16,847 nt of DNA from Candidatus Undinarchaeales archaeon. Its GTDB lineage: Archaea > SpSt-1190 > JASMDC01. Both the position numbers and the translations under genes were made by a program. Shown piece after piece: positions 1-14,597 of the stretch. The DNA lies in contig JASMDC010000055.1 in assembly GCA_030753015.1 (NCBI GenBank), forward strand, positions 1 to 16,847, written 5' to 3'. Below the pieces are notes generated by a model. That model saw nothing but the letters and a program-made list of their open reading frames with translations. It was not told the origin of the DNA and made no database searches. Numbering within the stretch: the first letter of the stretch is position 1; each line of letters begins with the position of its first letter.

Positions 1-79
1 TGCGCCGGACGATATTTAACTGATTCCATACAGTTCTTCAAGAACATGACACGGGCGTTCGTATTCAAGGGGACGTTGG

Positions 80-409: not shown

Positions 410-414
410 GGCCC

Positions 415-1152
415 CTATCCTGTGTACACCCTCGCCACACCTCTTCCTGCAGGCGTCAAGGAGACGCTGGCCTCTTTTCCCTTCTTCTCCTTCGTGATCG
501 CGCCCCACTCGCCCAGCCCTTCGAGGGTCCGCTGCATCTCCGTACGGGCGGCCTTGTACTTGTTGTCGTTGGGCGGGAAGTGCTTGTTCTCGACGATCTC
601 AACGAGTTCCCTGATGGAGGGGACTGTGCCGCCGCTCTTGTAGACGGCGTTGACGACCTCGAGCTCGCGCTTCACCAGTCGACGCAGGGGCATGACAGGG
701 ACCGAGCCGAAATCGTCGCCACCGATCTTCTTGAAGAAACCGTCGGGCGTCTTCATGGTCTTGTCCTTTGCTGTGTGGATGACCCGTGTCCGCTCGTTAC
801 CCACCATGCTGGCGGCGAACACGGCGGGGATGATGGCCTCCCGCGGCCCGTTGGAGATGTTCACGAACACGTCGCAGTCCTCATCCTTCTTCTCGCGCAC
901 GATTCGCCCTACCGCGCCGAACACGTGCTCGAACGACCACTTGTCGATGGTGACCTCGTGGTATGTGTGGGTTCCGCCGATGAACTCCTTGACGTGGGCG
1001 GCGCAGGCCTGCTCCTTCTCGTCGTGCTCGTGCGAGACGAGCATGTGAATCTCGTTGGGTAAAAGCGACTTAATCTGACGTTCGATGTACTCGGTGTAGT
1101 AGCCGCAGATGACGATGAGACATCGCTTTGTCGGGACGATAGCGGTAGGCAT
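415..1152 (-). CDS. CARF-like Rossmann domain plus C-terminal winged-helix transcriptional regulator (Csa3/DUF6293-like), 245 aa
   Basis: VFVNISNGPREAIIPAVFAASM resembles CARF motif II (v-N-x-S/T-x-G-x-R/K). The C-terminus RELEVVNAVYKSGGTVPSIRELVE...MQRTLEGLGEWGAITKEKKGKEASVSLTPAGR is a MarR-type wHTH. ATG 1152 was chosen over 1176 because of the GGGGAAG RBS and the TATA position. Confidence 0.72.
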   Translation of the reverse strand: MPTAIVPTKRCLIVICGYYTEYIERQIKSLLPNEIHMLVSHEHDEKEQACAAHVKEFIGGTHTYHEVTIDKWSFEHVFGAVGRIVREKKDEDCDVFVNISNGPREAIIPAVFAASMVGNERTRVIHTAKDKTMKTPDGFFKKIGGDDFGSVPVMPLRRLVKRELEVVNAVYKSGGTVPSIRELVEIVENKHFPPNDNKYKAARTEMQRTLEGLGEWGAITKEKKGKEASVSLTPAGRGVARVYTG

Positions 1153-1182
1153 TGGTACTTCCCCGATGCGATGCATGCAGTC

Positions 1183-1950: not shown

Positions 1951-2337
1951 ATGAGCAAAGATGTTGACGAGAAGGGGATGCTAGAGTTGCTCGGTGACCT
2001 GGTCGATGCCTCCTTAGGGATAGTCTGGGCGTCCCTCGAGCTGGCTTACGCGTTCGTCGTGGTCTTTGCGAACGTGACCGGCCTCCTCCCCGGGACCGCG
2101 GATACGACCGAGACATTCTCCCTCGGAAAGAAGGCCACTGTCCACGTCAACGACTTCAGCCCGGACAGGGTCGCGGACATGGCCCCCGTGCTCTGCGAGG
2201 TCGAGGACCAGCTCAAACGCCTCTGCAGCAGCGGCCCTGTCGACGTCACGGTCAGCATAGAGGTCGACGGCGGAGACGTCCCCGTCTGCATCGAGGACTC
2301 TGTCCCAAGCGATTCTTGGTCCCTGTCGCACACGTGA
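1951..2337 (+). CDS. Hypothetical protein, 128 aa, possible N-terminal hydrophobic helix
   Basis: GAAGGGGG RBS and coding-like codon bias. No family recognised. Confidence 0.55.
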   Translation: MSKDVDEKGMLELLGDLVDASLGIVWASLELAYAFVVVFANVTGLLPGTADTTETFSLGKKATVHVNDFSPDRVADMAPVLCEVEDQLKRLCSSGPVDVTVSIEVDGGDVPVCIEDSVPSDSWSLSHT

Positions 2338-2549: not shown

Positions 2550-2873
2550 ATGGTACAGAACGACGAAAAGACCGTGAAGAAACCGGTCACCGAGCAGAAG
2601 ATGGAAGACGCGCCCACCGCTCCCACGCCGACGGCGACGGATGGCGGCGTCACCCTGCGCGTTGGCGTAGGGCTCTTCCACAAGCCCCGTAACGTGAGCC
2701 TCTCCGGCTCCGAGACCGTGAACGACGTGCGCCATCTCTTAGGTGTGCCCGTCGAGTACGTGGCCGTGGTCCCCGGCAGGGGAGTCGCCGAGGGCGGCTG
2801 CGCTGTGTGCGAGGCAGTCGACGAGGGCGAGGAACTCCTCTTCGTGCCCCTGACCGCCGGCGGATCCCGGTAG
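2550..2873 (+). CDS. Ubiquitin-like (beta-grasp) modifier precursor ending ...LTAGG-SR, 107 aa
   Basis: SD GGTGA at 2540-2544. VTLRVGVG..RNVSLSGSETVNDVRHLLGVP...EELLFVPLTAGG aligns by eye with ubiquitin (TLEVEPSDTIENVK..GIP...TLHLVLRLRGG). Di-Gly at 2859-2864 is followed by Ser-Arg-stop. Sits next to E2 and JAMM genes, with E1 in the same operon. Confidence 0.82.
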   Translation: MVQNDEKTVKKPVTEQKMEDAPTAPTPTATDGGVTLRVGVGLFHKPRNVSLSGSETVNDVRHLLGVPVEYVAVVPGRGVAEGGCAVCEAVDEGEELLFVPLTAGGSR

Positions 2874-2882
2874 GCGGTTGCC

Positions 2883-3803
2883 GTGTCGTCCGTCGCCGAG
2901 GTGAACCTGCGCGAGCGCGTAGCGTCCGCGGTGGAGGCTGCGCTCTCGGCGTTCGCACGGTTGCACGACCGGCCGCTCACCCTGCTCCCCCTCTCGAACG
3001 GGGAGCTGGCGGCACTTGACGCGGAGATCGACGGCGACGCGCAGGTCGGTCCACGTCAGCAGGTGCGGACGCTGGTGCGCAAGGCGGCCGGGAGACCGAT
3101 CATGCTGGTGGCTGGCGCAGGTCCGGTCAAGACCTATACAATGGCCAGGATGGCCCGCGATGCCTACGACCTCTCGCTGTGCATGGCGACGTTCATCGTG
3201 CGCGAGCTCGAGCACCTTCCAGAGGTGCTGGAGGCCGCCCGTCTTGAGAAGCGGTTGGTCGCAGCCAACAACCTGGGCAGGCTGGGATTCCGTGTACAGG
3301 ACGAGCGCGGGTCTCGATTCTCGGGAAAGGTGGAGGTGCGCAAGGGGCCGATCAAGGGGAGCTATAGGATGGATGTGCTCCTCCCGCCCCGGTTCCCCGA
3401 CACCCAGCCGTTCTTCCGGCTGGTCGACGTGCCGCGCCACCCCAACGTCTACGACAGCGGCGACGTGTGCCTGGGCCACTTCGTGTGGAACCCGGCGCTG
3501 GACATCACCGTCCTGGTGGAGCAGGTGCGTCACGTGCTGGAGAACCCGAATTACGAGGACGGATTGCACCGGGAGGGCGACGAAGAACAGGAGGAGCTCT
3601 CGGAGAACAGCGTACGTCTGCTGTCCCTGGTCGCTGAGCTTGTCAGTGAGCGGAAGCCCAGTGTGACCTACGCCGAGATACGGCAGGTGGCCTCGGAGCG
3701 CGGAGGGATGAGCCACGACGAGATCGATGGCGCGATACAAGAGCTCATCACCAGGGGCGAGATCTTCGAGCCCCAAGCTGGAAGGTACCAGCCGCTCATC
3801 TGA
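2883..3803 (+). CDS. Ubiquitin-conjugating enzyme E2 (UBC fold) with N-terminal extension and C-terminal winged-helix domain, 306 aa
   Basis: YRMDVLLPPRFPDTQP...HPNVYDSGDVCLGHFVWNPALDITVLVEQVRHVLENPN matches eukaryotic UBC (FPTDYPFKPP..HPNINSNGSICLDIL..WSPALTI..LLCDPN). HPN at 3438-3446, Cys at 3468-3470. Tail EIDGAIQELITRGEIFEPQAGRYQ resembles the archaeal MCM C-terminal wH. Confidence 0.9.
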   Translation: MSSVAEVNLRERVASAVEAALSAFARLHDRPLTLLPLSNGELAALDAEIDGDAQVGPRQQVRTLVRKAAGRPIMLVAGAGPVKTYTMARMARDAYDLSLCMATFIVRELEHLPEVLEAARLEKRLVAANNLGRLGFRVQDERGSRFSGKVEVRKGPIKGSYRMDVLLPPRFPDTQPFFRLVDVPRHPNVYDSGDVCLGHFVWNPALDITVLVEQVRHVLENPNYEDGLHREGDEEQEELSENSVRLLSLVAELVSERKPSVTYAEIRQVASERGGMSHDEIDGAIQELITRGEIFEPQAGRYQPLI

Positions 3804-3819
3804 ACAGGTAGTGATCCAT

Positions 3820-4290
3820 ATGGGAGAGCTGAAAGAGGGAATTGGCGAGGATAAGGGAGTGGGGATCCCCCACGTCCTCATAGATAGGGACATCGAGCGC
3901 GATATGTATGCCGCTGCCATGGCGCAGTACATCATCAACGGCGGGGAGGCGTCGGGACTCTTGGTAGGCAGGGTTGAGGCGGACGTCGTTACCGTCACGT
4001 CAGCACCCCATATGCCCGGCGAGAGCGAGCACTCCTTCTGTCGCATCCCCCCCCTCACGGCCGCCGAGCTGGCGGCCTCGCTGCCCGACGACGTCGCCGT
4101 GGTCGGCTGGTGGCACTCCCACCCCAGGTTCGCGCGAACGCCGAGCGCCACGGACCTCGCCACCATCGACTCCATGGTGCGGTCGTCACCTCTCGTGGTG
4201 TCGGTAATCGTCGACCCACTGGTCTGCGCAATGGACGTCTACATCACCGACGACAGCGGGACATGGCACGTGGATGGAGGGTACGGGTGA
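3820..4290 (+). CDS. JAMM/MPN+ (JAB) metallo-isopeptidase, Rpn11-like, 156 aa
   Basis: EASGLLVG ... VVGWWHSHPRFARTPSATD ... VVSVIVDP is a complete E-xn-H-S-H-x7-S-x2-D JAMM motif. GGTAGTGA RBS before ATG 3820. Confidence 0.92.
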   Translation: MGELKEGIGEDKGVGIPHVLIDRDIERDMYAAAMAQYIINGGEASGLLVGRVEADVVTVTSAPHMPGESEHSFCRIPPLTAAELAASLPDDVAVVGWWHSHPRFARTPSATDLATIDSMVRSSPLVVSVIVDPLVCAMDVYITDDSGTWHVDGGYG

Positions 4291-6953
4291 TGCCGAGTCT
4301 CGCTAGGCTGGCGCTTGACCGGGAACGTTCGCGGGCGCGGTCCAATAACAGGGGCGGGACGGAGCCATCTCTTGGTAGTCTGCTCGCGTTAGTTAGCAAT
4401 GAAATGGAACAAATCCCGGAGATCGAGCTCGGGGGGGAGGAGGTTGCGGACACGTCGCGCGAGCTCGCAGAGGCGCTCGGCCGCAACGATTATCGAGAAG
4501 CTATCATATTCCTAGTGATCCTGGTAAGGATGACCCGATCGATCATCGAGAGAAGTGGAGCGCATGAGATGCAACCGATAAACGGCTCGGTGGTCCGCTC
4601 GCTCCTCCGGTCCACTGAAGAGCTCGAGTGGATCCACGGCGATGGTGACGATCTCCCAGGAAAGCTCGTGTTCCGCCTGGACGAGGGTCTAGTAACGGGA
4701 ACCGAGCGTGCATTGGAGAACGAGGACCCCCGCGTGGTGGAGTACTGGAGGGCCTCCGGCCGCTGGCTCGAAGAGAGCGCTAATCCCGACCACGGGGAGA
4801 GGCCGAGGTGGCCGGAGGGATCCGACCCGACCGTGCCGCGACCTGGGCTCCCGCTCTCCTTCCTGTGCACGGCCCACGCGTGGGCCTTGGCGGCCATCCT
4901 GCGCTCCTGCTCTACACTCCGACGGGGGCGGTACCTCGTCTACCTGCAACTGCTCCACCCTCTCGCTGTGTCGCTCGACCTGCTGCGCCAGCTCGATGAC
5001 GAGCACGACAGGTACCTGACAGTGAGGGATGGCGAGGATGAGGATGGCATCTTCTTCCACGAGGCGCTCGACGTGCTCGCCCGTGAACGGGCCTCTTTGG
5101 AGAGAGTTGTGGCAGACCACCTCTCCTCGCTCTACGGCCTCGAGAGGCTAGAGTTCATCCCGCCCCTCTGGCTTGAGGGGCAAGTGAACATCGAGAGGCC
5201 GCGCCCCGCTGGCAGGGAACGTAATGTCGGGCATCCGGTGACCGAATCGGCCAGCCGCATTACGGTCTTTCTGGCGAGCCGGGACCTTGCAGGCTCGGTG
5301 GAATCGCTTGCCCGGGCCTGCGCTGCTACGACGGACGCGCTCGACCCGGTCCACGGCGTCCCGTGGCACAGGAGGACCCACTTGGCGGACAGGTTGAGGT
5401 CGACCGCGTGCGACATCGCCTGGGGGATGAACCGCATCCAGAACAGCGGGGGAGTGGTCGCTGACATGGCGACGATAACCCGCTTCCTCAGGCACGTGGA
5501 GGGAAGGACGGACAACAGCTATGGATCGCCCATCGCGTGGACCCTCGACGCCTTCAGGATGCTGGCCGAAGAACACTTGCTGGCGATGGCCGACGCTCTC
5601 GATCCGCCTTCGGCCGGCGAGGTGGGAGTCCGACCCGACCATACCCAGTTCGGCGGCATCCCCTACCAGTTCTCGTCGGGTGTAGCACTCTCAAGAGCGC
5701 GCGAGCACCTCCGCCGGTATGACGGTCCACTTTCGTCGGAAGGTCTCGGCGGGGACTGGGGCGAGGAAGAGGGTGCTCGGCTTCTAGCCGCTCTCCGGGA
5801 GCTGGTCCGGTCGCGTGATGGGCTGGCCGCCGCCATCGACATGATGATCGCGCGGGAGAACGAGGACATGACACATCTCACCGACGGCCACGTGCTCTGG
5901 GGGGACGGGCTGGCGGCCGTGCCGCGCCTGGAGCCGGTGTCCGAGGAAACACACCGTGATGAGGGGGGGACGCTCGAACGGACCGTCCGGAACGCCGTCG
6001 CGCTCGAAGACGGCACGGGCATGCTCCACTATGTGTACCCACGCTTCATCGACCGGGCGCTGGACATCATCGAGGAGCGCGGGAACGATATCCGCCCCCT
6101 CGGGACGAGCGGCTCTGGTGAGCTGGTGATCGAGATCAACGGCCGGGTGGTGACCGCTCACCGCAACCTCGACTACTACACATGCTCGTGCGAGGACTCG
6201 CACTACCGTTCAGCAGAGGACCGACACTTGTGCAAGCACGTGGCGGTCGCGGCCATCCTGTTCGGTGACTTCGAGCTGCGAGAGGATCTGCACCTGCAGC
6301 GGGCAGAGGCCCTCTCCACACAGTTCTCTGACATCAGGGAGCGGGTGCTCGCCGAGCGCGGTGGCCGTGCCGATCATCTCAGGCAGACCGTACTGCGACA
6401 GCTGGTGGGGACGACGGACAGGAACGGAATTGAACTCCGTCAACGTCGGGCTGAGCTGCATGATCGCATCCGGAACCTTGAGGTACAGCGTATGGAGACG
6501 CCCCTCCACAACCAAGAACTACGCCGGGAGCTCCGGCAGGAGCTGGAGCGATACAACCTCGAGCTCGAGTCCATCAACAGACCGCTGGAAGGGGCGGGGC
6601 CGGCCAGGCGCAGGCCCGGCGAGGTGCCAAGGAGGGGGGGACCGGACGTTCTGGAGGGGCAGAGGGAGATTCTCAGGACCAGGATCATGGACATCCAAGC
6701 GAATATCGAAGAGATCAACGCGCGGATAAGGGGAGAGGAACCCGAGGTTCTCGAAGGTAACGAGCGCCGGGAACTCATTCGCCAGCAGGCGTCCCTTGAG
6801 CAAGAGCTAGCACGGTCAAGGCACCGGTTGGAAGACGTCCAGCACCAGCTCCAGCGGTCCGAGGCCCACGGTCGCTCCGGACCGGTCACGCGAGCAGTAG
6901 TGCGGGCGCCACCAGGGATGTGGGAGTGCGCGCCACCGGGGGAGGGGAGCTGA
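4290..6953 (+). CDS. Large protein: uncharacterised helical domain, SWIM zinc finger, coiled coil and WECxPP tail, 887 aa
   Basis: TGATG overlap with the JAMM stop. SWIM YTCSCEDSHYRSAEDRHLCKH (6183-6239). Heptad-rich C-terminus. Only 2 Lys. Confidence 0.8.
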   Translation: MPSLARLALDRERSRARSNNRGGTEPSLGSLLALVSNEMEQIPEIELGGEEVADTSRELAEALGRNDYREAIIFLVILVRMTRSIIERSGAHEMQPINGSVVRSLLRSTEELEWIHGDGDDLPGKLVFRLDEGLVTGTERALENEDPRVVEYWRASGRWLEESANPDHGERPRWPEGSDPTVPRPGLPLSFLCTAHAWALAAILRSCSTLRRGRYLVYLQLLHPLAVSLDLLRQLDDEHDRYLTVRDGEDEDGIFFHEALDVLARERASLERVVADHLSSLYGLERLEFIPPLWLEGQVNIERPRPAGRERNVGHPVTESASRITVFLASRDLAGSVESLARACAATTDALDPVHGVPWHRRTHLADRLRSTACDIAWGMNRIQNSGGVVADMATITRFLRHVEGRTDNSYGSPIAWTLDAFRMLAEEHLLAMADALDPPSAGEVGVRPDHTQFGGIPYQFSSGVALSRAREHLRRYDGPLSSEGLGGDWGEEEGARLLAALRELVRSRDGLAAAIDMMIARENEDMTHLTDGHVLWGDGLAAVPRLEPVSEETHRDEGGTLERTVRNAVALEDGTGMLHYVYPRFIDRALDIIEERGNDIRPLGTSGSGELVIEINGRVVTAHRNLDYYTCSCEDSHYRSAEDRHLCKHVAVAAILFGDFELREDLHLQRAEALSTQFSDIRERVLAERGGRADHLRQTVLRQLVGTTDRNGIELRQRRAELHDRIRNLEVQRMETPLHNQELRRELRQELERYNLELESINRPLEGAGPARRRPGEVPRRGGPDVLEGQREILRTRIMDIQANIEEINARIRGEEPEVLEGNERRELIRQQASLEQELARSRHRLEDVQHQLQRSEAHGRSGPVTRAVVRAPPGMWECAPPGEGS

Positions 6954-9613
6954 TGCCCGATATATTCGACCGAGCAGTCCAGGAGCTCGAGAGCACCAGG
7001 AATGATGGACATGACTCCAACGAGCGCGCGCTGCAGCTCGCCAACATCGTGCACCGGCACGCCGAGGCGGAGTTCGGTGTCGACGGGCTCGAGCGCTCTC
7101 TTGACCCGCTGGCGACGTGCCTGCACGGCCGCGCGCACGCGGGAGAAACGTACGCCTGTCTCGTGCTACTCGCCGCCGCGTGCGACATCGCTGCGGACGT
7201 TGTGAACAGTACACGAGATGGTGGAGGGAACGTCCGTCAGCAACACACCCGGCCTCTACTCCAGATCGCGGGCGATCTCCTCTTCAATGATGATAGCACC
7301 CTCATCAACCAGCGGGAGGTCGTGCCCGGCTCCTTGGGCGAGGTCGTCATGGTGCCTGCCCGTGCAGGGACGCTGACACGTCCGCACGATGAAGACCGAG
7401 AGGGCCGATCTCATGACGACCTGCTCGCCTGGTGCGCGGTCCACCTCTGGGCCATCGGGCGAATCCTCGACGAGTGCTCGGGCGACGGCTTGAGCGCTGC
7501 CGGTATCGCGCGATTTGCCACGGTCGTACGGGCGCTGCGCACATTGGACCACGCGCAGTTCATGCACGCCGAGATCGAGGAGTACCCATGGGAAAGGGAT
7601 GCCTATGTGGAAGCTGCGCTCGCAGCTCTATTCAACAAGCGCAGCCGCCTGACGGGTCGGCTCGCCCAGTCCCTGCGCGACCGGCTCGGGCTCGAGCCGC
7701 CGCTGTTCATACGGCCGGGCGCACAGTTCATTCCAGGGAGGTTGTCGGTGGAGGACTGGGACCGGACCACCGTTAGGGAGGCTCTGGAGGTGGCCCGCCA
7801 CCTGGATGCTGGTGAGCTCAACGACGCACTCCGGTCCCTGGCACGGGCCATCCACGCCGGACTTAACGCGGACGACATCGGTCAGGATGAGCGGAGCACG
7901 ACCGCCCGTCGACTGCGGGCGATCTCCTGCGGCATCGCTTGGGGGATGGCGGCCCCGGTGGCGTACGACGACATGAACCGCGCCATGGGTGAGCTGGTCA
8001 GCTTCACGCGGGAGTGCTTCCAGATCAACCTTCCTGAAACGCGCGAACCGGGCCTCCCGCGGGCCGTCCGGGCGCACGTCGAGGCGCATCTGGAGGCGCT
8101 GGCGGTCGCGATCGATCCACCTCACGCCATTACATCCCGGGACGCGCCGCGGGCGTCCATCTGGCGCGGGCAGTCCGATCTGTTCCGTGTACCGCGGGAC
8201 CTGAGCGCCGACCACATCATCTCAAGTGTCCACGACCGGCTCCGTGTGCACAATCCGAGTTCCGACAACGTCGACCGGGTGAGCGACGAGCGTCGGGACG
8301 CCGAGGAGGAGCTCGCGAGGGCCCGGGGTCAGCTGCTCTCCTTGCTGGAGGAGATGGAGGACCAGGCAGACATCATGCTCGAGGACGACGATGCCATCTG
8401 GCCATTGCGCGGGATCGTCATCCCCTTAATCCCGGGCGCCACCGGTGAACTGCAAGGGGAAGGGGTGCCGTTCTTCGAGATGGAGTACCGGCGAGACGGC
8501 ACTCCCCTGAACATAGACATAGATTCCGAAACCGGCCAGCTGATCCGCACCACGGGGACCGCTTCACGCGGGAACATAATCCCGGACATCGCCACCCGCT
8601 ACCTGGAGGCCGCCGAGGAGCACGGGAGGGCCAGGGACGAGGCCGCGCGGCATGGCCTGCGGCGGTCGCGGGAGGAGCGGTTCTCCCGACAGGAGGCGGT
8701 CCCCGGATGGGACCAGGGCAGGTTACGGCGGGCCGTGGTCGTGGTCGCCGGAGTGGGCGGCCTGGGCGCGGCGGTGGTGGACCAGCTGGCACGGATGGGC
8801 GTCGGGACGGTCCGCGTCGTCGACCACGACCGGGTGGAGGACTCCAACATCTCGCGCCAGTGCCTCTACATCGCCGACGACGTCGGGAGCCTCAAGGTGG
8901 ACGCTGCCGCGCGACGGGTGTCGGACCTCGACGGGCCCACCCGCGTGGTCCCGCGACCCGCGTACTTATGCGAACGCAACGCTCTCATGCTGGTGGCCGG
9001 CGCCGACGTGGTGTTCGACTGCCTGGACAGCGAGAAGAGCAAGCACCTGCTCAACCACGCGTGCGCGCGGGCGGGGGTACCGCTGGTCCACGGGGGATGC
9101 ACGGGATTCATCGGGCAGGCGATGGCCGTGGTGCCGGGACGGACGGCGTGCCTGGCGTGCCGGGAGCTTACCTTCTCGGTGGCGGACACGGCCAGCTGCA
9201 CCCGCGACGAGACCCTGCCCATCGTGGCCCCCACGGCCCAGCTGGTGGCGTCCCTGCAGGTGGATCTGGCCCTGCACGTGCTCATGGGGACGGGCGACGT
9301 GCCGTCGGGGCTGCTCCTGTACGATGGCCGCGGGCCGGGCGTGCGGTCCGTGCCGGTGGAGCGCAGGGACGACTGCCCTGTGTGCGGAGGTAACGGGACG
9401 ACGGACGACGATGTGCGGACGGCGCTCTCACTCCAGTCTCAAGATTCCCTGCTCCAGATCGCCGGGGCCGTGGGGATGGAGCACGCCGACGGGATGGACA
9501 CCAGCAACCTCGTCGAAGCGCTCGTCGACGTGTTCTCGGCCCTCCCTGACGGCAGGCACCGTGCGCTACGACTGGCGTCGGGCGTGCAGTTCATCGAGGA
9601 GGCGATGTCGTGA
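6953..9613 (+). CDS. Ubl-activating enzyme E1 (ThiF/MoeB/UBA domain) fused to a ~575-aa N-terminal helical domain, 886 aa
   Basis: TGATG coupling. RFSRQ (8678), GVGGLG (8750), VVDHDRVEDSNISRQ, DVGSLK, DCLDS, Zn pairs CLAC and CPVC, and a crossover-loop Cys in ASCTRD (9197). Confidence 0.9.
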   Translation: MPDIFDRAVQELESTRNDGHDSNERALQLANIVHRHAEAEFGVDGLERSLDPLATCLHGRAHAGETYACLVLLAAACDIAADVVNSTRDGGGNVRQQHTRPLLQIAGDLLFNDDSTLINQREVVPGSLGEVVMVPARAGTLTRPHDEDREGRSHDDLLAWCAVHLWAIGRILDECSGDGLSAAGIARFATVVRALRTLDHAQFMHAEIEEYPWERDAYVEAALAALFNKRSRLTGRLAQSLRDRLGLEPPLFIRPGAQFIPGRLSVEDWDRTTVREALEVARHLDAGELNDALRSLARAIHAGLNADDIGQDERSTTARRLRAISCGIAWGMAAPVAYDDMNRAMGELVSFTRECFQINLPETREPGLPRAVRAHVEAHLEALAVAIDPPHAITSRDAPRASIWRGQSDLFRVPRDLSADHIISSVHDRLRVHNPSSDNVDRVSDERRDAEEELARARGQLLSLLEEMEDQADIMLEDDDAIWPLRGIVIPLIPGATGELQGEGVPFFEMEYRRDGTPLNIDIDSETGQLIRTTGTASRGNIIPDIATRYLEAAEEHGRARDEAARHGLRRSREERFSRQEAVPGWDQGRLRRAVVVVAGVGGLGAAVVDQLARMGVGTVRVVDHDRVEDSNISRQCLYIADDVGSLKVDAAARRVSDLDGPTRVVPRPAYLCERNALMLVAGADVVFDCLDSEKSKHLLNHACARAGVPLVHGGCTGFIGQAMAVVPGRTACLACRELTFSVADTASCTRDETLPIVAPTAQLVASLQVDLALHVLMGTGDVPSGLLLYDGRGPGVRSVPVERRDDCPVCGGNGTTDDDVRTALSLQSQDSLLQIAGAVGMEHADGMDTSNLVEALVDVFSALPDGRHRALRLASGVQFIEEAMS

Positions 9614-10479
9614 GCACCGGATTCCCTGGAGCAGCGCCCCGTGTGTACGGGCGACGAATGGGTCGGGGGCCGACGGTCGAGGTCTACGAGGAGGGATTCG
9701 TCGTCGAGCGCTGCCCGACTTGTGGCAGGCACCTCAAGGATATGACCGACTGGCCGAATGTAAGGGTTACCGGGATCGAGGACGCGGTGGACGACGTGCG
9801 CCGCGAGTCCCTTTCGCGGCTGGTGCGGCGCGGGCCCTTCCTGCTCCAGTGGGGGACCGTGCCGGGATGCGCGAGCGGAGCGATGCAGCGGTGCCTGGTC
9901 GACGAGCTGGGCCTGAACTGGGCGGCCGGGGCCGAGGTGCACCCGGTCGGCGACAGGTCGGTCCTCGTCATTAGAGGTCGGCGGTGGTGCATGGTCACCC
10001 TCGATCAGGACGAGCTCGTCGCGCACCTCGAGGTGGATGATGGGAGGAGGCTCGAGCTGGGCGTCGCTCGACTCGGCGACCGTGTCGACCTCCATATCCC
10101 TCTCGACGACGACGATGTCGATGATAGGACCGCTCCTTACCTCTGGGCCCGGAACCCCGCTGCGGTGCACTCCGCGAGGGCTGCTGTAGCCCATCTCAAG
10201 GGATTCGTCGGCACGGACGCGGATCCGGACCGGATAGCTGAGCTGTGGCGCGCCGAGGGATTCAGCGGACCATGGGCCCGTTACCACGAGTTCAGGGGTG
10301 TCCGGATCGTGCAGGTCGGCGGTTACGCGCTCTACCTCGACGACAACGTCCTTACGCTTGTCGACGCGGACAGGATCGGCGGTGGGCTCGACGGTCCTCC
10401 GCCGGTGACGTTCCGTCTGGCGCGGGTGCTGTACGAGGGGATGCTGCACGAAGAGCGGAGCGGTGGCGGCAGTGGCTGA
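9610..10479 (+). CDS. Hypothetical protein with CxxC knuckle and central beta-rich domain, 289 aa
   Basis: GTGA overlap with the E1 stop and GGAGG RBS. ERCPTCGRH. Coding-like codon bias. Only 2 Lys. Confidence 0.7.
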   Translation: MSTGFPGAAPRVYGRRMGRGPTVEVYEEGFVVERCPTCGRHLKDMTDWPNVRVTGIEDAVDDVRRESLSRLVRRGPFLLQWGTVPGCASGAMQRCLVDELGLNWAAGAEVHPVGDRSVLVIRGRRWCMVTLDQDELVAHLEVDDGRRLELGVARLGDRVDLHIPLDDDDVDDRTAPYLWARNPAAVHSARAAVAHLKGFVGTDADPDRIAELWRAEGFSGPWARYHEFRGVRIVQVGGYALYLDDNVLTLVDADRIGGGLDGPPPVTFRLARVLYEGMLHEERSGGGSG

Positions 10480-12286
10480 GGACGGAACGATCCTTCTCGC
10501 GTGCGAACGCGCGCACCACCAGGCCGTCGCCGGGAAGAGGGATGACATGATGGAGTGCCTCCGGTTCGCCGGTGATAGTATCTCTAACATCATGCGCACC
10601 CGGTCTTTCTCGCGACGACCGCGTGCCCGTTCCATGGATTCATTGCAGTTGGACGAGCGAATTGCGTCCTTGTCAGCCCACCTCATCACTGGTGGCACAG
10701 GTCCCGCCCCGGGCCCACGAGTGATCGCAGTACCCCTTGACACGGGGCGGACGTGCCCTGACCTCAGGGACGGACCATTAGACACACAACTACATCTGTG
10801 CTGCCCCCCGCGCACGTTGTGCGCGGCGGAATTATGGACGCTCTCCCGCGTCTTTCACTTGGCCATCTGCGGCGCAGGTGACGTGCATGAGCGCATAGTC
10901 ATGTCCGACCTCGTACGCATAGGGAGAGCGCTCACAAGCCTGACCGATCCCCTGTTCCCTTTTGGGGGGGTCGCCTCCGGGTTGGGAGACGACCTCTTTA
11001 TGTACCCTCTTGATATGCTCTCCTTTAACCGGACTTCATCGGATGACGGTGCGGATGCAAGGCACGCAGTCGTTCGGGAAAGGCTCGACGATGTCGCGCA
11101 GGTCGAGCGCCACCATATCGTCGACGTTGCCCTGGACGCGGCCCTCGGCCTCCAGTGCGGCAGGACCGAGGACATGGCGCGCGGCCTCACCTCCCTAGAG
11201 GAAATGTGCCGGATAACCGCGTCGGTCCTGGAGGGCGGGACGGAAGAACCCGGTGAGAGGGACGTCACGCTCCTCCGGTTCATATCAGCCACCCTTGCAC
11301 TGGAGGACGTCATCGCGGCGACTGAGACGGATATCTTCTTCGATACCATGGAGCTCGGAAGGTCCGTGCTCACGTCAAGTTATATCGGGGCGTACTACGG
11401 CGGGATGCCGGACCCCGTACAGTTCAGGCTGGCGTGCGAGCACCATATCGAGGCATGCGCGAGCGCGCTCGACACCAGAGCGGACCTATCGGGGGCAGTC
11501 TGGCAGGGCGTGGGTCAGTGGTATCAGCTCGGTCCCGACGAGGGGGTGGTCCTTCCGCTCCTGAACGCCCGGGAGCGACTCATGCGGTACAGGTCAGACT
11601 TCAGACCCCCGGAGGACGCTGTGGATCACGAGGTCACGTCAGCGTCCAGAGCCCTGTCGCGGCAGCGCGACCAGCTCCTTGACGTGCTGGACGCACGGAT
11701 CGCTGCTCTGACGGAGGGCGCTATGAGAACTGCAGGGCGTCGGTACGTATCGCTCTCGTATCCCGAAGGAATAGTCGCCGCCGCAGAGGGCGCAACGGTC
11801 GGGCCCGACGTACCGGGCGACCAGGTCTGCGCGACCGTTCGGAGCGGGGAACACCCTGAATGGGATGTGACCCGGTGGACGCTGGTACAGGCCCAGCACT
11901 TCATCAAGAAGCACGGGTATCTCATCGATCGCCTGGGTACCAGCCAAACGGGCGAGCCGGTGCTTGTCGTGGACTCGCACGTAGTGGCGCTGGGTCAGGA
12001 CAACCTGGATCGAGACCGCTACCGCCCCCTCTACGAGTGCTACTCATGCCGGGAGTTTCGTGAGCAGAACGGGACCCGACCCCGGCTCTGCAAGCACCTA
12101 ACGGCGGCGCTCATCATCATGGGCCGACTGGGTGAGCGCGAGGGTGTCGACCTCAGCCTGCTCGACCGGGCCCTCGCATTGATAAGGGAGGAGGTCGGGA
12201 TGACGGGCATCCGCGGGCGGTACCGCAGCAGCGCGTGCGCGGGCGACGGGGTATGGGAGTGTCGGGCGCCAAGGGAGGGGGTATGA
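10463..12286 (+). CDS. Paralog of 4290-6953: helical domain, SWIM-like zinc finger and WEC tail, ~607 aa (start may be GTG 10472)
   Basis: YECYSCREFREQNGTRPRLCKH (12038-12097). LGTSQTGEPV motif. Shared helical-domain motifs. Ends GVWECRAPREGV. Confidence 0.78.
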   Translation: MAAVAEDGTILLACERAHHQAVAGKRDDMMECLRFAGDSISNIMRTRSFSRRPRARSMDSLQLDERIASLSAHLITGGTGPAPGPRVIAVPLDTGRTCPDLRDGPLDTQLHLCCPPRTLCAAELWTLSRVFHLAICGAGDVHERIVMSDLVRIGRALTSLTDPLFPFGGVASGLGDDLFMYPLDMLSFNRTSSDDGADARHAVVRERLDDVAQVERHHIVDVALDAALGLQCGRTEDMARGLTSLEEMCRITASVLEGGTEEPGERDVTLLRFISATLALEDVIAATETDIFFDTMELGRSVLTSSYIGAYYGGMPDPVQFRLACEHHIEACASALDTRADLSGAVWQGVGQWYQLGPDEGVVLPLLNARERLMRYRSDFRPPEDAVDHEVTSASRALSRQRDQLLDVLDARIAALTEGAMRTAGRRYVSLSYPEGIVAAAEGATVGPDVPGDQVCATVRSGEHPEWDVTRWTLVQAQHFIKKHGYLIDRLGTSQTGEPVLVVDSHVVALGQDNLDRDRYRPLYECYSCREFREQNGTRPRLCKHLTAALIIMGRLGEREGVDLSLLDRALALIREEVGMTGIRGRYRSSACAGDGVWECRAPREGV

Positions 12287-13032
12287 TGCCTGGCGGGAGC
12301 GGGGAGGGCGCCAGCTCCTGGAGCGACCGGCAGAGGGAGCTCGCCGAGTACGCCGGTATAATCCTGATGGAGGAGGGTGAGACCTTCGAGCAGGCGGAGA
12401 GGCGCCAGGAGAGGGAGATGCGTGAGCGCGGGGCCAGGCGCACAGGAGTTACCGGCGAGCAGACCGGCCAGGCTCCTGGGCAGCGACCGCGCGAGGTGTC
12501 CGGGGCGTCTTCGGACAGCGCGTCCCGGGGCGGGGCGCCGGCGGCGGACCTCGAGGGCGCGAGGACCGGCGGGCGGGACCGACCGGCGTGGACCACGTGG
12601 CGGGATCCGGGAGGCGTCGAGTGGCGGATCACGCTGGACAAGCTCAACAGGGCCGCCAACATCCTCCTGACCGAGTTCGACCTCAGGCGCATGGGCACCA
12701 GCGCGGTCGGAGAGATCGTGCTCGAGATCGCGTCCCGCGTCGTCACGGTGAACCTGGAGCGCCGCTACTGCGTGTGCTCATGCGAGGACTACCGCTCAAG
12801 CAGCGAGGGGGACCACCACCTGTGCGAGCACGTAGTGGCCGCGCTCTTCATCATGGGGGAGCTGGGGGAGCGCGAGGGCATCGATCTCGGCCTCTTCTCC
12901 CCGCTCGTCCCCGCGATCAGGAACTGGCTCCTTTTCGATGGGAACCCTGATACCCTTGCGGAGGACGGGAAAGGGCGGAGCGAGGGTTGGGAATGTCGGC
13001 CACCGGGGGATGGGAGGGAGTGCGACGGGTGA
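12283..13032 (+). CDS. SWIM zinc-finger protein with low-complexity N-terminus and WEC tail, 249 aa
   Basis: ATGA overlap and GGAGGGGG RBS. MGTSAVGEIV...YCVCSCEDYRSSSEGDHHLCEHVVAAL. Ends EGWECRPPGDGRECDG. Confidence 0.78.
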   Translation: MMPGGSGEGASSWSDRQRELAEYAGIILMEEGETFEQAERRQEREMRERGARRTGVTGEQTGQAPGQRPREVSGASSDSASRGGAPAADLEGARTGGRDRPAWTTWRDPGGVEWRITLDKLNRAANILLTEFDLRRMGTSAVGEIVLEIASRVVTVNLERRYCVCSCEDYRSSSEGDHHLCEHVVAALFIMGELGEREGIDLGLFSPLVPAIRNWLLFDGNPDTLAEDGKGRSEGWECRPPGDGRECDG

Positions 13033-13491: not shown

Positions 13492-13689
13492 GTGCTGAAC
13501 GCCTTCGTCAGGCTGGTGGTGGATATACTCCCGCTACCGCTCGGCCTGACGGCGGGGGTGCCGGGCATCTCGTCCGGCACGAGCCTCGAGGGTAAAGCGC
13601 ACCCGGCGGGCGGAGGGCTCGCGCGGGGCGGGGAGAGAGGCGGTGAGCCGTCCATGGCGGAAAGACGGAAAAAGGTGACACCCATATGA
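13492..13689 (+). CDS. Possible small hypothetical protein, 65 aa (alternative: 13476-13595, 39 aa)
   Basis: GGAGGAG RBS before GTG, and its stop overlaps the nuclease ATG. The reading frame is ambiguous and the sequence is low-complexity. Confidence 0.3.
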   Translation: MLNAFVRLVVDILPLPLGLTAGVPGISSGTSLEGKAHPAGGGLARGGERGGEPSMAERRKKVTPI

Positions 13690-14597
13690 CACCGACAGAA
13701 CAAGGGGAAAGATCCATGCCCGAACTCGAGGACTGGTTCCATAGGTACAACAAGTGGTCGTTCAGCAAGCACAGGCTCTGGAACGAGTGCAGGCGACAGT
13801 ACTGGTACCGGTACATCGGCACGGCACTGCGGACCTCTGATGAGGTGGACGTTGCGCGACTGAAGGCCTTGCGCGGGCTGACACCCCGCGCCGCCCTCGA
13901 GGGTATGCTGGTCCACGATGCGATCGAGAAGCAGATGGACCGCTTCGCCAGAGGGATGACCGTCAATGAGGAGCTGGCGGCCAAGCACCTCGTCAGCGAG
14001 ATGGCCAAGTTCACGGGAACACCCCGGGATAAGATCATCGAGTTCCACAACGGCGTCGAGCAGCCCGAGAACTACTTCGAGCGGGTGCAAGACGGGGGCA
14101 TCGGGAAGCTCGGGACGTTCTTCGCCAAGATATGGCCACGCATCGAGGGCTCGGAGCACCTGAGGCACGAGAAGTTCGACGAGGTCACGGTGGGCGACGT
14201 GGTCGCGACCGTGAAGGTCGATCTCGCATGCCGGATGGCCGACGACACGATCGTCGTCTACGACTGGAAGACAGGGCGCGAGGATCCCGCGTACGAGAGC
14301 GAACTCCAGCTCGGCGCCTACGTGCTGTGGGCGAGCCGGTATTACAGCGCAGCACCGGAGAAGGTGCGGAGCGAGCTTGTGTACCTGGCGACCGGGAACG
14401 TACGCAGGCACGAGTTCTCCGCCGAGCAGCTCGACAGGGTAGGGCTGCTGATCGTGTCGGACTTCAAGAGGAGGAACAGCTCGTACGAGATGGGCGCGTT
14501 CTCCCCCGACCCCGGTCCGTGGAAGTGCCAGGGGTGCCGGTTCGCGACTGTGTGCCCCCACTCGCTGCACGGGGAGGCGCCGGGAGGAGGTCCCTGA
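13686..14597 (+). CDS. PD-(D/E)XK nuclease, RecB/AddB/Cas4-like, with 4-Cys Fe-S staple, 303 aa
   Basis: WSFSKHRLWNECRRQYWY, GMLVHDAIE, KVDL...YDWKTG, QLGAY, and C-terminal CQGCRFATVCP. SD AGGTGA. Confidence 0.88.
   Translation: MTPTEQGERSMPELEDWFHRYNKWSFSKHRLWNECRRQYWYRYIGTALRTSDEVDVARLKALRGLTPRAALEGMLVHDAIEKQMDRFARGMTVNEELAAKHLVSEMAKFTGTPRDKIIEFHNGVEQPENYFERVQDGGIGKLGTFFAKIWPRIEGSEHLRHEKFDEVTVGDVVATVKVDLACRMADDTIVVYDWKTGREDPAYESELQLGAYVLWASRYYSAAPEKVRSELVYLATGNVRRHEFSAEQLDRVGLLIVSDFKRRNSSYEMGAFSPDPGPWKCQGCRFATVCPHSLHGEAPGGGP

Follow-up and report, generated by a model that had tools for sequence, protein, structure and literature searches.

Prokaryotic operons encoding an E1, an E2 and a JAB protease are known, the choice of their targets is mostly obscure, and archaeal examples outside the Asgard archaea and Aigarchaeota are few. 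The window analysed here, by which we mean the whole stretch of 16,847 nucleotides from a marine Candidatus Undinarchaeales archaeon, encodes an E1, a UQ_con-type E2 and a JAMM protease together, according to Pfam. The eukaryote-like Ub–E1–E2–RING–Rpn11 operon of Candidatus Caldiarchaeum subterraneum, as far as the cited parts of its descriptions go, is similar in being archaeal and in comprising a UQ_con E2, a single-chain ThiF-type E1, a JAMM protease and a precursor modifier that needs C-terminal trimming (PMC3082918, PMC5654768, PMC6043591). The window differs from it in that no RING E3 was found with Pfam, three SWIM-like proteins being encoded instead, in that its modifier has no ubiquitin-family match and is more SAMP/ThiS-like, and in that its E1 carries a 580-aa extension. 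Furthermore, its E2 has an extra N-terminal domain and a winged helix (wH) and is without alpha3 and alpha4.

Two further groups of systems share parts of this composition. The haloarchaeal SAMP/UbaA/JAMM sampylation pathway is alike in its modifier, which the one of the window resembles by Atlas features, and in its enzymes, the window E1 matching the UbaA model at 5.1e-39 and the JAB the desampylase model at 8.2e-6, both below cut-off. To our knowledge, sampylation works without an E2, whereas a UBC-type E2 is encoded beside the modifier in the window. The bacterial Bil (BilABCD) and CBASS Cap2/Cap3 systems, in the portions of the reports cited, likewise combine a ubiquitin-like protein (Ubl), an E1, an E2 and a JAB within a single accessory operon (10.1101/2023.09.04.556158; 10.1101/2023.09.26.559546). 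In the window, PADLOC models match the JAB and, in the E1, the adenylation domain. In contrast to Bil and CBASS, the host is an archaeon, the E2 has no PADLOC match, E1 and E2 are separate proteins, there is no cyclic-nucleotide synthase, and the E2 bears what may be its own targeting domain.

That domain, the wH, has its closest described counterparts in archaeal RPA32/Rpa2 (9f27) and MCM (2ma3, 2m45), with which it shares the fold and a conserved C-terminal motif, and Rpa2 also has an acidic flexible linker ahead of its wH, according to the passages cited (PMC11686378; PMC4357721). Here, the module is part of a ubiquitin-conjugating enzyme, whereas in those proteins it is joined to an ssDNA binder with an OB fold and to a helicase, respectively. 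In eukaryotes, RFWD3 and RAD6–RAD18 are comparable in that ubiquitin machinery is brought to the fork via the RPA hub at RPA-coated DNA, as the cited part of the source describes it (PMC13728104); there, however, an E3 binds RPA, whereas in the window the E2 itself carries the RPA/MCM-type docking domain. A literature search for an E2–wH fusion or a SWIM-linked Ubl operon, which had most subscription journals outside its range and is thus no proof of absence, found nothing relevant.

Domain architecture of the E2

The E2 gene and its parts are as follows.

2883..3803, + strand: E2 gene, 306 aa, GTG start; N-terminal domain, UBC core, acidic linker and wH; Pfam UQ_con E 5.8e-12
2883..3218, + strand: N-terminal domain, aa 1-112; family-specific, predicted alpha/beta, AF2 pLDDT 41-66
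3219..3578, + strand: UBC core, aa 113-232; alpha1, four strands, HPN 186-188, Cys196, W202, alpha2, PN 222-223; without alpha3/alpha4
3468..3470, + strand: codon of the predicted catalytic Cys196; invariant in 79/79 E2 cores, aligned with the active-site Cys of UBE2N
3579..3611, + strand: acidic flexible linker, aa 233-243; 0 K+R, 6 D+E; length-variable in homologues; pLDDT <50 at aa 232-235
3612..3800, + strand: RPA32/MCM-type wH, aa 244-306, RPA32-like subtype; conserved GEIFEP..G motif; profile, fold and BLASTP matches

An identical protein and eight close homologues, which have the same start, are present in public data; the eight are ENA proteins, known from protein sequences. The E2 matched Pfam UQ_con (PF00179) at 45.8 bits against a cut-off of 27, with aa 158-235 on positions 44-124 of the 140 in the profile, and UQ_con was the sole Pfam family matched by aa 113-235 even at E values up to 10. 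Eukaryotic E2s were the best matches in a PDB sequence search, UBE2N being first at 1.2e-7. In an E2-core alignment of 79 rows, P172, P176, H186, G193 and C196 were invariant and P187, N188, W202, P222 and N223 were conserved in at least 90%. A deep search yielded 71 taxon-unlabelled E2-core matches. The AF2 model displayed the UBC fold (alpha1, four-stranded sheet, alpha2) with pLDDT of about 90-96 for aa 120-230. Foldseek returned 320 PDB matches to the model at E <= 0.001, all of the matches listed being E2s; RAD6/UBE2A, Cdc34, UBE2G2 and Ubc9 were the best (E 7.5e-6 and up), and 1q34_A was superposed over 116 columns with an rmsd of 2.3.

The earlier note on this DNA had called the protein a canonical eukaryote-type E2 with HPN-x7-C and W-x-P motifs. 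Both motifs are present, H186-P187-N188 being followed after seven residues by C196 and then by W202-N203-P204. The E2 matched neither the Prok-E2 families of Pfam nor the Cap2/Bil models of PADLOC (E <= 0.01), and its sequence thus assigns it to the UQ_con (eukaryote/archaeal) type, as proposed. The domain is not complete, however. Alpha3 and alpha4 of the canonical UBC domain are absent from both the Pfam match and the AF2 model; the profile match stops at 124 of 140 and only one 5-residue helix lies between alpha2 (aa 208-220) and the linker, so that the enzyme is a truncated UBC core. Because alpha3 and alpha4 are absent and the first 43 profile positions are unmatched, activity of the E2 is not assured. 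The same note had pointed to an unexplained N-terminal domain of ~115 aa, and the N-terminal ~110 aa indeed had no relative in Pfam (E up to 10), PDB or Atlas. This domain is 83-96% identical among the eight homologues, and its AF2 confidence was low in both models, which is not evidence of a new fold. A PhoH/PIF1-like identity for it was considered and rejected, the Atlas features reaching just 0.80, which is chance level by the tool's figures.

The winged helix and its exchange among homologues

The likening of the C-terminal ~65 aa to the wH of MCM or RPA32, also made in the earlier note, was borne out. In the AF2 model the region folds as helix–helix–helix–strand–strand (H241-256, H263-274, H278-290, E294-298, E301-304; pLDDT 86-95). 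The first AF2 model of the E2, from a 9-row alignment, had a mean pLDDT of 46.5 and was used for the wH only. A profile made from E2 tails only found, in the PDB, the wH of P. abyssi RPA32 (9f27, 1.4e-8), the MCM C-terminus of M. thermautotrophicus (2ma3, 5.5e-7) and 8x7t (8.5e-4). The fold search placed 2ma3 first (Z 6.1, rmsd 2.4, 54 residues aligned), ahead of 2m45 (Z 5.9) and RPA32C (4mqv, Z 5.8), values near 6 lying in the range that the tool calls common. MCM or RPA wH accounted for four of the five Pfam families listed for the tail; MCM_WH_arc scored 18.6 bits (E 0.002), its cut-off being 26.1, and RPA_C reached an E value of 0.24. BLASTP aligned the E2 wH with the host RPA32-like protein at 43% identity over 60 aa (E 8e-11) and with the host MCM at 44% over 41 aa (E 2e-6), and by sequence it is nearer to RPA32 than to MCM. 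Furthermore, among 33,493 six-frame ORFs of the host genome, the wH profile matched the E2 (4.9e-26), MCM (7.5e-23) and the RPA32-like protein (2.9e-21), the next match being at 0.19; the module is thus rare in this genome and confined to these three ORFs.

Comparison with the eight homologues separates the E2 into two parts. The chassis (aa 1-230) is 83-98% identical to theirs. The wH is kept by seven of the eight; it is 95% identical in the nearest, P0003, and 32-62% identical in the other six. Close homologues carry either an RPA32-like wH, as the window E2 does (type A), or an MCM-like wH (type B): the type-A tail of P0005 matched RPA32 at 2e-14 versus MCM at 4e-4, and the type-B tail of P0009 matched MCM at 3e-9 versus RPA32 at 0.004. 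The chassis of the window E2 differs at 6 of 230 residues from each of the type-B proteins P0007 and P0008 and at 15 and 20 of 230 from the type-A proteins P0005 and P0006, respectively. P0007 has two wH copies in tandem. In an alignment, the wH of P0005 was 52% identical to the RPA32-like wH of genome G000, 50% to that of G001 and 34-39% to those of other class members. About 70 columns underlie the wH trees, and the tree of the chassis had no resolution. At the level of sequence, the wH is thus a cassette that is swapped between an RPA32-like and an MCM-like form, while the catalytic chassis hardly varies.

The E2 linker and wH have a pI of 4.1-4.9, and the chassis one of 6.9-7.4. In 16 aligned wH domains, the conserved part comprised both strands and the final stretch of helix 3, and the cited part of a study of P. 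abyssi describes this 'canonical' face as the one through which the Rpa2 wH, itself preceded by a Glu-rich linker, binds PriS (PMC11686378). The same source, in the portion cited, presents the RPA32 wH as a hub for replication and repair factors and RPA32C-type wH domains as gripping short peptide motifs (PMC11686378). The archaeal MCM wH regulates the MCM ATPase in cis, and the tails of RPA32 and MCM are protein-docking or regulatory modules, the MCM wH being 'truncated, lacking the wings', in the passages cited (PMC11686378; PMC4357721). When the four PriS-contact residues named there were mapped by hand from the alignment, E250 and E259 were identical in the E2 wH and Q replaced E261 and K266 (PMC11686378). 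The two shared contact positions speak for docking by this face, and the two that differ speak against it. In addition, the wH could bind an operon-encoded partner, for example the WEC..PPGEG tails described below, or regulate the E2 in cis.

Operon partners, neighbourhood and distribution

From its sequence, the E2 gene lies in a tightly packed operon with genes for a Ubl precursor, a JAB protease, a ThiF-type E1 and three SWIM-like proteins. The other genes of this part of the window and two of its neighbours are as follows.

415..1176, - strand: CARF + winged-helix regulator, Csa3/HFX_2341-like; PADLOC CARF3 6.5e-22
2550..2873, + strand: Ubl precursor of 107 aa; N-terminal tail variable, core of ~75 aa conserved and ending LTAGG, followed by SR
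3727..4290, + strand: JAB/JAMM metalloprotease; likely true start ATG at 3820; Prok-JAB 1.3e-10, JAB 1e-6; H-S-H-x7-S-x2-D motif
4110..6953, + strand: p947, large SWIM-like protein of 887 aa from its likely start at 4290; contains the shared 'X' domain, a SWIM-like module, a coiled coil and a WEC..PPGEG tail
6920..9613, + strand: E1; ThiF domain at aa 597-821 of an 897-aa ORF, with a ~580-aa 'X' extension ahead; ThiF 1.3e-52
9610..10479, + strand: p289, 289-aa protein without assigned family; start overlaps the E1 stop; weak phrog match (4e-4) alone
10463..12286, + strand: p607, 607 aa; 'X' domain, SWIM-like module (CxxC variant), WEC tail; paralogous to p947 and p265; no Pfam match
12235..13032, + strand: p265, 265-aa SWIM-like protein; WEC tail; paralogous to p947 and p607
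13686..14597, + strand: PD-(D/E)XK Cas4-like nuclease, neighbour; PDDEXK_1 1.9e-19; Cas4 and Argonaute-associated Cas4-like PADLOC models 1e-9

The Ubl had no Pfam match even at E values up to 10, and hence no ubiquitin-family match; its look-alikes by Atlas features were SAMP2/ThiS clusters (0.84-0.86), which is a lead only. Its homologues P0090 and P0091 start as it does and end in AGG+SR and AGG+LRMGGT. PDB sequence searches with p947 and the Ubl gave nothing meaningful. The true start of the E1 is at 6953 (886 aa), homologues being called at 886 aa, and the E1 matched the ThiF, UbaA and MoeB models of NCBIfam, all under cut-off. The JAB matched PADLOC JAB models down to 4.6e-10. Complex prediction for E1 and Ubl scored 0.54 (runs 0.54, 0.58 and 0.52) against 0.12 for the best of three controls, with at least 78% of contacts agreeing between runs and a partner pLDDT of at least 76. 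Among 157 solved complexes, 116 also attained the mark reached here, against 2 among 215 mismatches; scores of 0.60 or less account for only 18 of the 157 and for both mismatches. Because ThiF/MoeB–carrier complexes have already been solved, this pass may reflect likeness to them, and the model thus weakly suggests that E1 and Ubl may pair.

SWIM (PF04434; CxCxnCxH signature, cut-off 19.6) scored p265 at 0.0013 (18.6 bits) and p947 at 0.0027 (17.6 bits), both under the cut-off, and did not match p607, which has CxxC where CxC is expected. In addition to its two SWIM-like paralogues, p947 is paralogous to the E1 N-terminus (25% identity over 442 aa, 1.5e-12). The three SWIM-like proteins share the WEC..PPGEG-type C-terminal motif, kept in p947 across a coiled-coil insertion of ~200 aa. 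This motif coincides with a GGAGG-rich DNA repeat just before the next start codon and thus may be a ribosome-binding site. No RING or U-box was detected at E <= 0.01 among the 16 ORFs scanned with Pfam, a search that might miss a divergent E3.

Further neighbours are a second CARF protein and an AAA_23 ATPase, and an ABC transporter lies between the defence-like genes. The search for mobile-element borders found neither a tRNA nor long terminal repeats. Of the 17 class genomes compared, G000 alone yielded the catalytic E2; in the only further genome of its genus (99% complete), the queries used detected neither the E2 nor p947, nor the left flank or the CARF–wH gene. On this sequence evidence the locus is accessory. 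The E2 family forms one 50%-identity cluster among 1.84 billion representatives. Searches with the E2 alignment gave 17 pattern matches in genome contigs and 16 in viral contigs, no relative being among either, and one identical 1,954-bp contig only in metagenome contigs. Three marine metagenome runs, which come from three studies, contain near-identical contigs that cover every one of the 30 bins of the window. The RNA-library run X20, from the sample that is possibly the source of the window DNA, gave five small contigs, three of them at least 99% alike (1301-1553, 2507-2647 and 3224-3431), and this library may contain DNA. The contig, of 20 kb, was binned into a MAG that has 5% contamination; in tetranucleotide profile it agrees with the genome (r 0.964, 15th lowest of 70). 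The host also encodes a primase of a divergent fused PriS–PriL form and a second AEP.

Possible targets of the tag

We propose the following scenario. The operon would be a self-contained archaeal system for ubiquitin-like tagging, with the E2 as its conjugating enzyme; the JAB protease would trim the 107-aa Ubl precursor to its ...AGG end, the ThiF-type E1 would adenylate the trimmed Ubl, and the Ubl would be handed as a thioester to Cys196. The SWIM-like proteins might act as E3-like adaptors or as a scaffold with the E1. The aiming device would be the wH, a copy of the host RPA32-like/MCM C-terminal docking module on a flexible acidic linker; by mimicking it, the charged E2 would reach the proteins that normally receive the wH of RPA32 or MCM, which in Pyrococcus are the primase PriS and PolD, and would attach the Ubl to them or to their neighbours.

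The earlier note had suggested targeting to DNA or to replication proteins, and the two halves of this suggestion fared differently. Since the tail copies the docking domain of two replication proteins and relatives of the E2 swap copies, the replication machinery is the probable target of the tag, which is also the most economical reading of a module found only on MCM, the RPA32-like protein and the E2 and alternating between types. Placement of the E2 on chromatin or foreign DNA by a DNA-binding wH is very improbable; wH domains commonly bind DNA and several fold matches at Z 5-6 are DNA-binding wH proteins (SarX, SAMD1), but the acidic pI and the conserved part of the wH, corresponding to the face of Rpa2 for PriS, argue for protein docking over DNA binding, and the closest sequence relatives, some of them solved, dock proteins or are regulatory, as noted above. 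We see about even chances that the wH serves to dock the charged E2 onto proteins that are clients of RPA32 or MCM, as opposed to DNA. Because the host primase is of the divergent fused form, the Pyrococcus wH–PriS interface may not transfer. A partner inside the system, bound by the wH (the SWIM-like proteins with their WEC..PPGEG tails, or the E1 extension), or gating of the E2 active site in cis is unlikely. The motif shared by the three SWIM-like proteins, the grip of RPA32C-type domains on short peptides and the action of the MCM wH in cis, in the passages cited above, would suit it; however, such a partner would have to co-vary with wH domains that differ by about 65% on near-identical chassis, yet the E1s presumed to lie on the same contigs are 74-84% identical, and the WEC motif overlaps the GGAGG-rich repeat.

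If the wH leads to replication proteins, the purpose of the tag has to be weighed. In eukaryotes, RAD6–RAD18 modifies PCNA in DNA-damage tolerance, and by analogy the operon might modify replisome or repair factors of its own host, the wH competing with RPA32 and MCM for clients. The closeness of the wH to the RPA32-like wH of the lineage itself, its nearest match in the P0005 comparison, the first place of RAD6/UBE2A among fold matches, barely above other E2s, and the role of the RPA32 wH as a hub, in the portion of the source cited above, are consistent with such control. Neither the second genome of the genus nor the remaining 15 of the class yielded the E2 system, however, so that it is not a core function; the E2 family is, moreover, a single cluster, and we consider cellular control improbable. 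Alternatively, the operon may act against viruses or plasmids, the swappable wH latching onto replication proteins of the invader or hijacked parts of the host replisome and the Ubl tag blocking replication; bacterial Bil reportedly tags a phage tail protein in an analogous manner. We consider this less likely than not; the accessory distribution and the CARF and Cas4-like neighbours only hint that the targets belong to invading elements, as the earlier note had suggested. The accessory E2, the CARF, Cas4-like and AAA_23 neighbours and a mosaic, fast-changing aiming domain on a frozen chassis fit it, as do, in the parts of the reports cited, bacterial E1/E2/JAB/Ubl operons that are antiviral (10.1101/2023.09.04.556158; 10.1101/2023.09.26.559546). 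On the other hand, no PADLOC model matches the E2, the E1 and JAB match generic parts of CBASS models only, viral contigs gave no relative of the E2, an ABC transporter sits amid the defence-like genes, and guilt by association from a single 20-kb contig is weak. The fullest form of the proposal, in which an E3-independent, self-aiming E2 uses interchangeable copies of the RPA32/MCM docking domain to tag primase, polymerase or initiator as an archaeal immune system or replication veto against viruses and plasmids, is doubtful.

This E2 openly displays what may be its addressing device, a flexibly tethered replisome docking domain that occurs in two versions, whereas the catalytic body is almost unchanged. 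It thereby offers a testable hypothesis on the tagged proteins, namely that they are clients of the RPA32/MCM wH, for which type A and type B would be a natural experiment. Through it, the lineages with a UQ_con-type E2 gain one outside the Asgard archaea, which is relevant to the spread of the eukaryote-type E2 in archaea. If the operon is defensive, ubiquitin-like immunity would extend to archaea. Should the self-aiming immune or veto reading be true, the E2 would provide the first mimicry-based substrate targeting built into a ubiquitin-conjugating enzyme and the operon the first ubiquitin-like defence described in archaea.

Catalytic core and operon of the E2

The E2 ORF is a real gene, as an identical protein and eight homologues (77-97% overall identity) are recorded and the complete homologues start at the same position. 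It lies among plus-strand genes in which neighbours abut or overlap.

Genes of the E2 operon (p proteins named by ORF length in aa)
2550-2873, plus strand: ubiquitin-like modifier (Ubl) precursor, 107 aa; start common to homologues; conserved core of about 75 aa ending in LTAGG
2883-3803, plus strand: E2, GTG start, 306 aa
3727-4290, plus strand: ORF of a JAB protease, likely start 3820; Prok-JAB 1.3e-10; HSH-x7-S-x2-D motif
from 4290 (likely start), plus strand: p947, large SWIM-like protein
from 6953, plus strand: E1, 886 aa as called in homologues; ThiF 1.3e-52
9610-10479, plus strand: p289, ORF without assigned function
10463-12286, plus strand: p607, 'X' domain and SWIM-like module
12235-13032, plus strand: p265, SWIM-like protein

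The only Pfam family matched by the E2 was UQ_con (E 5.8e-12, 45.8 bits against a cut-off of 27; aa 158-235 on profile positions 44-124 of 140), which stayed the sole family for aa 113-235 even with E relaxed to 10; neither the Prok-E2 families of Pfam nor the PADLOC models (Cap2, Bil) matched. The closest solved structures by sequence were eukaryotic E2s, namely UBE2N (1.2e-7) followed by UBE2A, UBE2T and Ubc9. The HPN-x7-C and W-x-P motifs reported in the earlier note are present as H186-P187-N188, seven residues and C196, and then W202-N203-P204. In a 79-row alignment (the nine family members, 69 of 73 further deep-search hits and one archaeal E2 from the related genome G028; among the hits, P0039 and P0056 were dropped because of their length, and P0052 and P0067 as tail-only matches), P172, P176, H186, G193 and C196 were invariant, and P187, N188, W202, P222 and N223 were conserved in at least 90% of rows.

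The AF2 model built with the nine-row family alignment (mean pLDDT 46.5) was usable for the tail only. With the 79-row alignment, pLDDT was about 90-96 in the UBC core (aa ~113-232) and 86-95 in the tail (aa 240-300), and the N-terminal 110 residues remained at 41-66. All Foldseek matches listed from the PDB were E2s, led by RAD6/UBE2A, Cdc34, UBE2G2 and Ubc9 (E from 7.5e-6; for example 1q34_A, 116 columns, rmsd 2.3). The modelled core runs from alpha1 (113-133) through the strands, the active-site loop, alpha2 (208-220) and a 5-residue helix into the linker; the canonical alpha3 and alpha4 helices are absent, in agreement with the UQ_con match stopping at position 124 of 140. The description of this E2 as canonical thus applies to the catalytic centre and not to the whole domain. 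The UBC-type active site is intact and sits on a truncated core.

A dedicated Ubl/E1/JAB set accompanies the E2. The di-glycine of the Ubl is followed by SR in the window and in the homologue P0090 and by LRMGGT in the homologue P0091, a variable extension that looks like that of a processed modifier. The Ubl had no Pfam match, and its nearest Atlas feature clusters were SAMP2/ThiS (0.84-0.86), a likeness that is a lead only because it falls under the tool's 0.9 line. The ThiF domain of the E1 occupies aa 597-821 of the 897-aa ORF, and an 'X' domain of about 440 aa is common to the E1 N-terminus and p947 (25% identity, 1.5e-12) as well as to p947 and p607 (5.9e-7). Furthermore, p947, p607 and p265 have a SWIM-like module in common (E 1e-15 to 1e-17); Pfam SWIM scores were just under the cut-off of 19.6 for p265 (18.6 bits) and p947 (17.6 bits), with no match for p607. 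A Pfam search of the window ORFs found no RING or U-box.

Complex prediction with the E1 adenylation part (two copies) and the Ubl core gave a score of 0.54 (runs 0.54, 0.58 and 0.52) against 0.12 for the best of three controls, with at least 78% of contacts agreeing between runs and partner pLDDT of at least 76. Of 157 solved complexes, 116 passed the mark for this score, as did 2 of 215 mismatches; those passing at 0.60 or less were just 18 of the solved complexes and both mismatches. The prediction lends weak support to E1-Ubl pairing; the pass may reflect likeness, because ThiF/MoeB-carrier complexes are already solved.

All three SWIM-like proteins carry the C-terminal motif W-E-C-x-x-P-x-[ED]-G. 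At the DNA level, two of the copies make up a direct repeat of 29 nt (6921-6949 and 12988-13016, 83% identical), rich in GGGGGAGGGGAG and directly ahead of the next gene's start; the third copy is at the 3' end of the ORF that stops at 12286. The repeat may encode a functional C-terminal peptide, be retained as a ribosome-binding site that couples translation, or do both. An ORF of 128 aa that precedes the Ubl gene (1951-2337, plus strand) has a hydrophobic helix and had no family match.

A replisome-type winged helix exchanged on one chassis

The E2 tail was modelled by AF2 as three helices and a hairpin. A Foldseek-independent structure search placed the MCM C-terminal domain of Methanothermobacter thermautotrophicus first (2ma3, Z 6.1, rmsd 2.4, 54 aligned), followed by that of Sulfolobus solfataricus (2m45, Z 5.9) and human RPA32C (4mqv, Z 5.8); since Z values of about 6 are commonly reached with this tool, these matches alone show just a winged-helix (wH) fold. 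A profile made of seven E2 tails and no other proteins matched the Pyrococcus abyssi RPA32 wH (9f27, 1.4e-8), the M. thermautotrophicus MCM C-terminus (2ma3, 5.5e-7) and MCM 8x7t (8.5e-4). We regard this sequence evidence as decisive for a tail of the archaeal RPA32/MCM type, which bears out the MCM/RPA32-like wH suggested in the earlier note.

Across 41 related genomes, the E2 had matches in ten, full-length in its own genome alone; G028 matched in the UBC core and all others in aa ~213-305 only. Six tail-only matches scanned with Pfam were C-terminal in OB-fold ORFs of 250-340 aa (RPA_C and MCM_WH_arc matches in one), and a seventh was the end of an MCM. The tail was 43% identical over 60 aa to the host RPA32-like protein (E 8e-11) and 44% over 41 aa to the host MCM (E 2e-6), and in an alignment of 16 wH domains every one had the GEIFEP..G hairpin motif and a matching end to helix 3. 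When the complete set of 33,493 six-frame ORFs (60 aa or longer) of the window's genome was searched with the 16-domain profile, exactly three matched, namely the E2 (4.9e-26), the MCM (7.5e-23) and the RPA32-like protein (2.9e-21); the hit ranked after these was at 0.19. The C-terminal wH of the E2 is homologous to the RPA32/MCM tails. The MCM and RPA32-like OB-wH genes adjoin on the same strand (contig C35, 14141-17052) and both end in the GEIFEP..G motif, suggesting that their tails have a common client in this lineage.

Identity to the window's E2 across homologues, by segment
aa 1-112: 83-96%
aa 113-230: 90-98%
aa 244-306: 32-62% in six of seven tail-bearing homologues; 95% in the nearest, P0003

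Tails of type A (P0001 and P0003-P0006), the window's type, are RPA32-like, that of P0005 matching the host RPA32-like protein at 51% over 63 aa (E 2e-14) and the host MCM at E 4e-4. Type B tails (P0007-P0009) are MCM-like, that of P0009 matching the host MCM at 44% over 59 aa (E 3e-9) and the RPA32-like protein at E 0.004; a tree of the 16 wH domains joined type B with the host MCM tail (support 87/77) and was otherwise poorly resolved. The catalytic body does not track the tail type: aa 1-230 of the window's E2 differ by 6 residues from each of the type B P0007 and P0008 and by 15 and 20 from the type A P0005 and P0006, residue counts being used here because the tree of the body is unresolved. 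Such a mismatch between body and tail marks domain exchange as opposed to gradual divergence: the wH has been exchanged between two types on one chassis. P0007 has two tandem tails, and P0010 lacks a tail in a possibly cut sequence.

Among the deep-search hits, P0052 (452 aa) has an unrelated N-terminus followed by five tandem repeats of the E2-type wH, and P0067 (468 aa) looks like the C-terminal piece of an MCM, bearing the wH twice in tandem; together with the doubled tail of P0007, they show that the module is prone to tandem duplication.

Accessory distribution of the E2 locus

The locus is accessory in its distribution. A word-indexed search with the E2 scored 8,000 candidates and gave nine proteins at E <= 0.001, and an exhaustive profile search of 1.84 billion cluster representatives gave 74 at that threshold, namely the family's own cluster (2e-182), 71 matching the UBC core only (7.6e-7 to 1e-3) and 2 matching the wH only, with no second E2-wH fusion among them. 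The E1 with its extension had six relatives and the Ubl two. UQ_con matches occurred in 2 of the 17 genomes of the class in the collection, both of the window's genus, and in G001, the second genome of that genus (99% complete), it was only a long multi-UBC-like ORF that matched. Searches of G001 with the first 244 residues of the E2, p947, the left flank DNA and the CARF-wH protein gave no match, and its best match to the window's ABC ATPase was a 44% paralogue; the whole contig is thus accessory relative to the single congeneric genome, G001.

The contig (C68) is 20,370 bp long, and its first 16,847 bp make up the window. Its tetranucleotide profile correlates with the genome at r 0.964 (rank 15 from the bottom among 70 contigs of 8 kb or more); GC is 66% in the operon versus 60% in the genome. 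Near-identical contigs covered 30 of 30 window bins in three metagenome runs, marine or seawater, each from a different study. One RNA-library run, whose sample may be the source of the DNA, contained small identical pieces within the Ubl and E2 genes, which is not proof of transcription. Defence-flavoured genes surround the operon at window 1-1176 and 13686-14597 and at 17330-20370 of the contig. They encode a CARF-wH regulator of the Csa3/HFX_2341-like kind, a Cas4-like PD-(D/E)XK nuclease, another CARF protein, which is small, and an AAA_23 ATPase cut by the contig end. The flanking genes also include an ABC transporter, and the contig showed neither a CRISPR array nor a cas operon.

Elsewhere in the window's genome, an ORF of about 700 aa (contig C26, about 22096-24207; L014:697-2808, minus strand) has three UQ_con-like stretches, of which one, with 31.8 bits, exceeds the Pfam cut-off. 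It lacks an HPN-Cys active site and therefore looks like a multi-UEV/UBC-like repeat protein; unlike the catalytic E2, it is kept in both genomes of the genus (orthologue on G001 contig C6). Contig C54 holds two archaeo-eukaryotic primase-like ORFs (L027:850-2187, minus; L028:1171-2889, plus). The 445-aa ORF matches DNA_primase_S (3.8e-8). The 572-aa ORF resembles, at its C-terminus, the PriL C-terminal domain (9f26_B, 1.1e-4) and is therefore a fused PriS-PriL form. Candidatus Undinarchaeota is known for small genomes. The two genomes of the genus are 3.6-3.85 Mb at about 60% GC (contamination 5% in the window's), and the other 15 of the class in the collection are 0.6-1.2 Mb; the pair is either a branch with exceptionally large genomes or the product of a problem in binning or classification.

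Proposed docking surface and role

At origins, the wH of archaeal MCM contacts Orc1. One study (PMC4357721) describes the archaeal MCM wH as truncated and as modulating the ATPase. According to another (PMC11686378), the P. abyssi Rpa2 wH binds the primase subunit PriS through a 'canonical' face comprising the end of helix 3 and strands 2 and 3 (E250, E259, E261 and K266) and PolD DP2 through helix 2 and strand 1, and a Glu-rich linker ahead of the wH has a part in primase stimulation. When these contact positions were mapped by hand onto the E2, E250 and E259 were identical and E261 and K266 were both Q. The canonical face is conserved among E2 tails, helices 1-2 are variable, and the E2 likewise has an acidic linker before its wH (aa 233-243, 6 acidic and 0 basic residues).

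The earlier note raised DNA, besides replication proteins, as a possible target of the E2. The pI of linker and wH is 4.1-4.9 in seven of seven E2s (6.9 for the N-terminal domain and 7.4 for the UBC core), which argues for protein docking and against DNA binding; we consider DNA binding by the wH highly improbable. Binding to operon partners or regulation in cis would be another function of the wH, though one that we think unlikely.

With roughly even confidence, we propose that the wH directs the charged E2 to the partner proteins of the RPA32 or MCM tail. The wH would be the address label of the E2, and these partners would then be tagged with the Ubl, a step that may need no classical E3 or may use the SWIM-like proteins as adaptors. 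Within this proposal, defence against replicating invaders is a tentative reading that the accessory distribution, the neighbouring genes and the cassette behaviour of the wH favour over host replication control, to which we assign a low probability like that of binding within the operon. No report of an E2-wH fusion or a SWIM-linked Ubl operon was found in full-text literature whose coverage excludes most subscription journals, and earlier comparative-genomics surveys of E2 architectures may mention such a fusion. In gene logic the system is like the Caldiarchaeum-type cascade of archaea and the Bil/Cap2 modules of bacteria. It departs from them in having a Ubl outside the ubiquitin family, an operon in which no RING was found, and an E2 that matches none of the bacterial defence models and bears a replisome docking domain.
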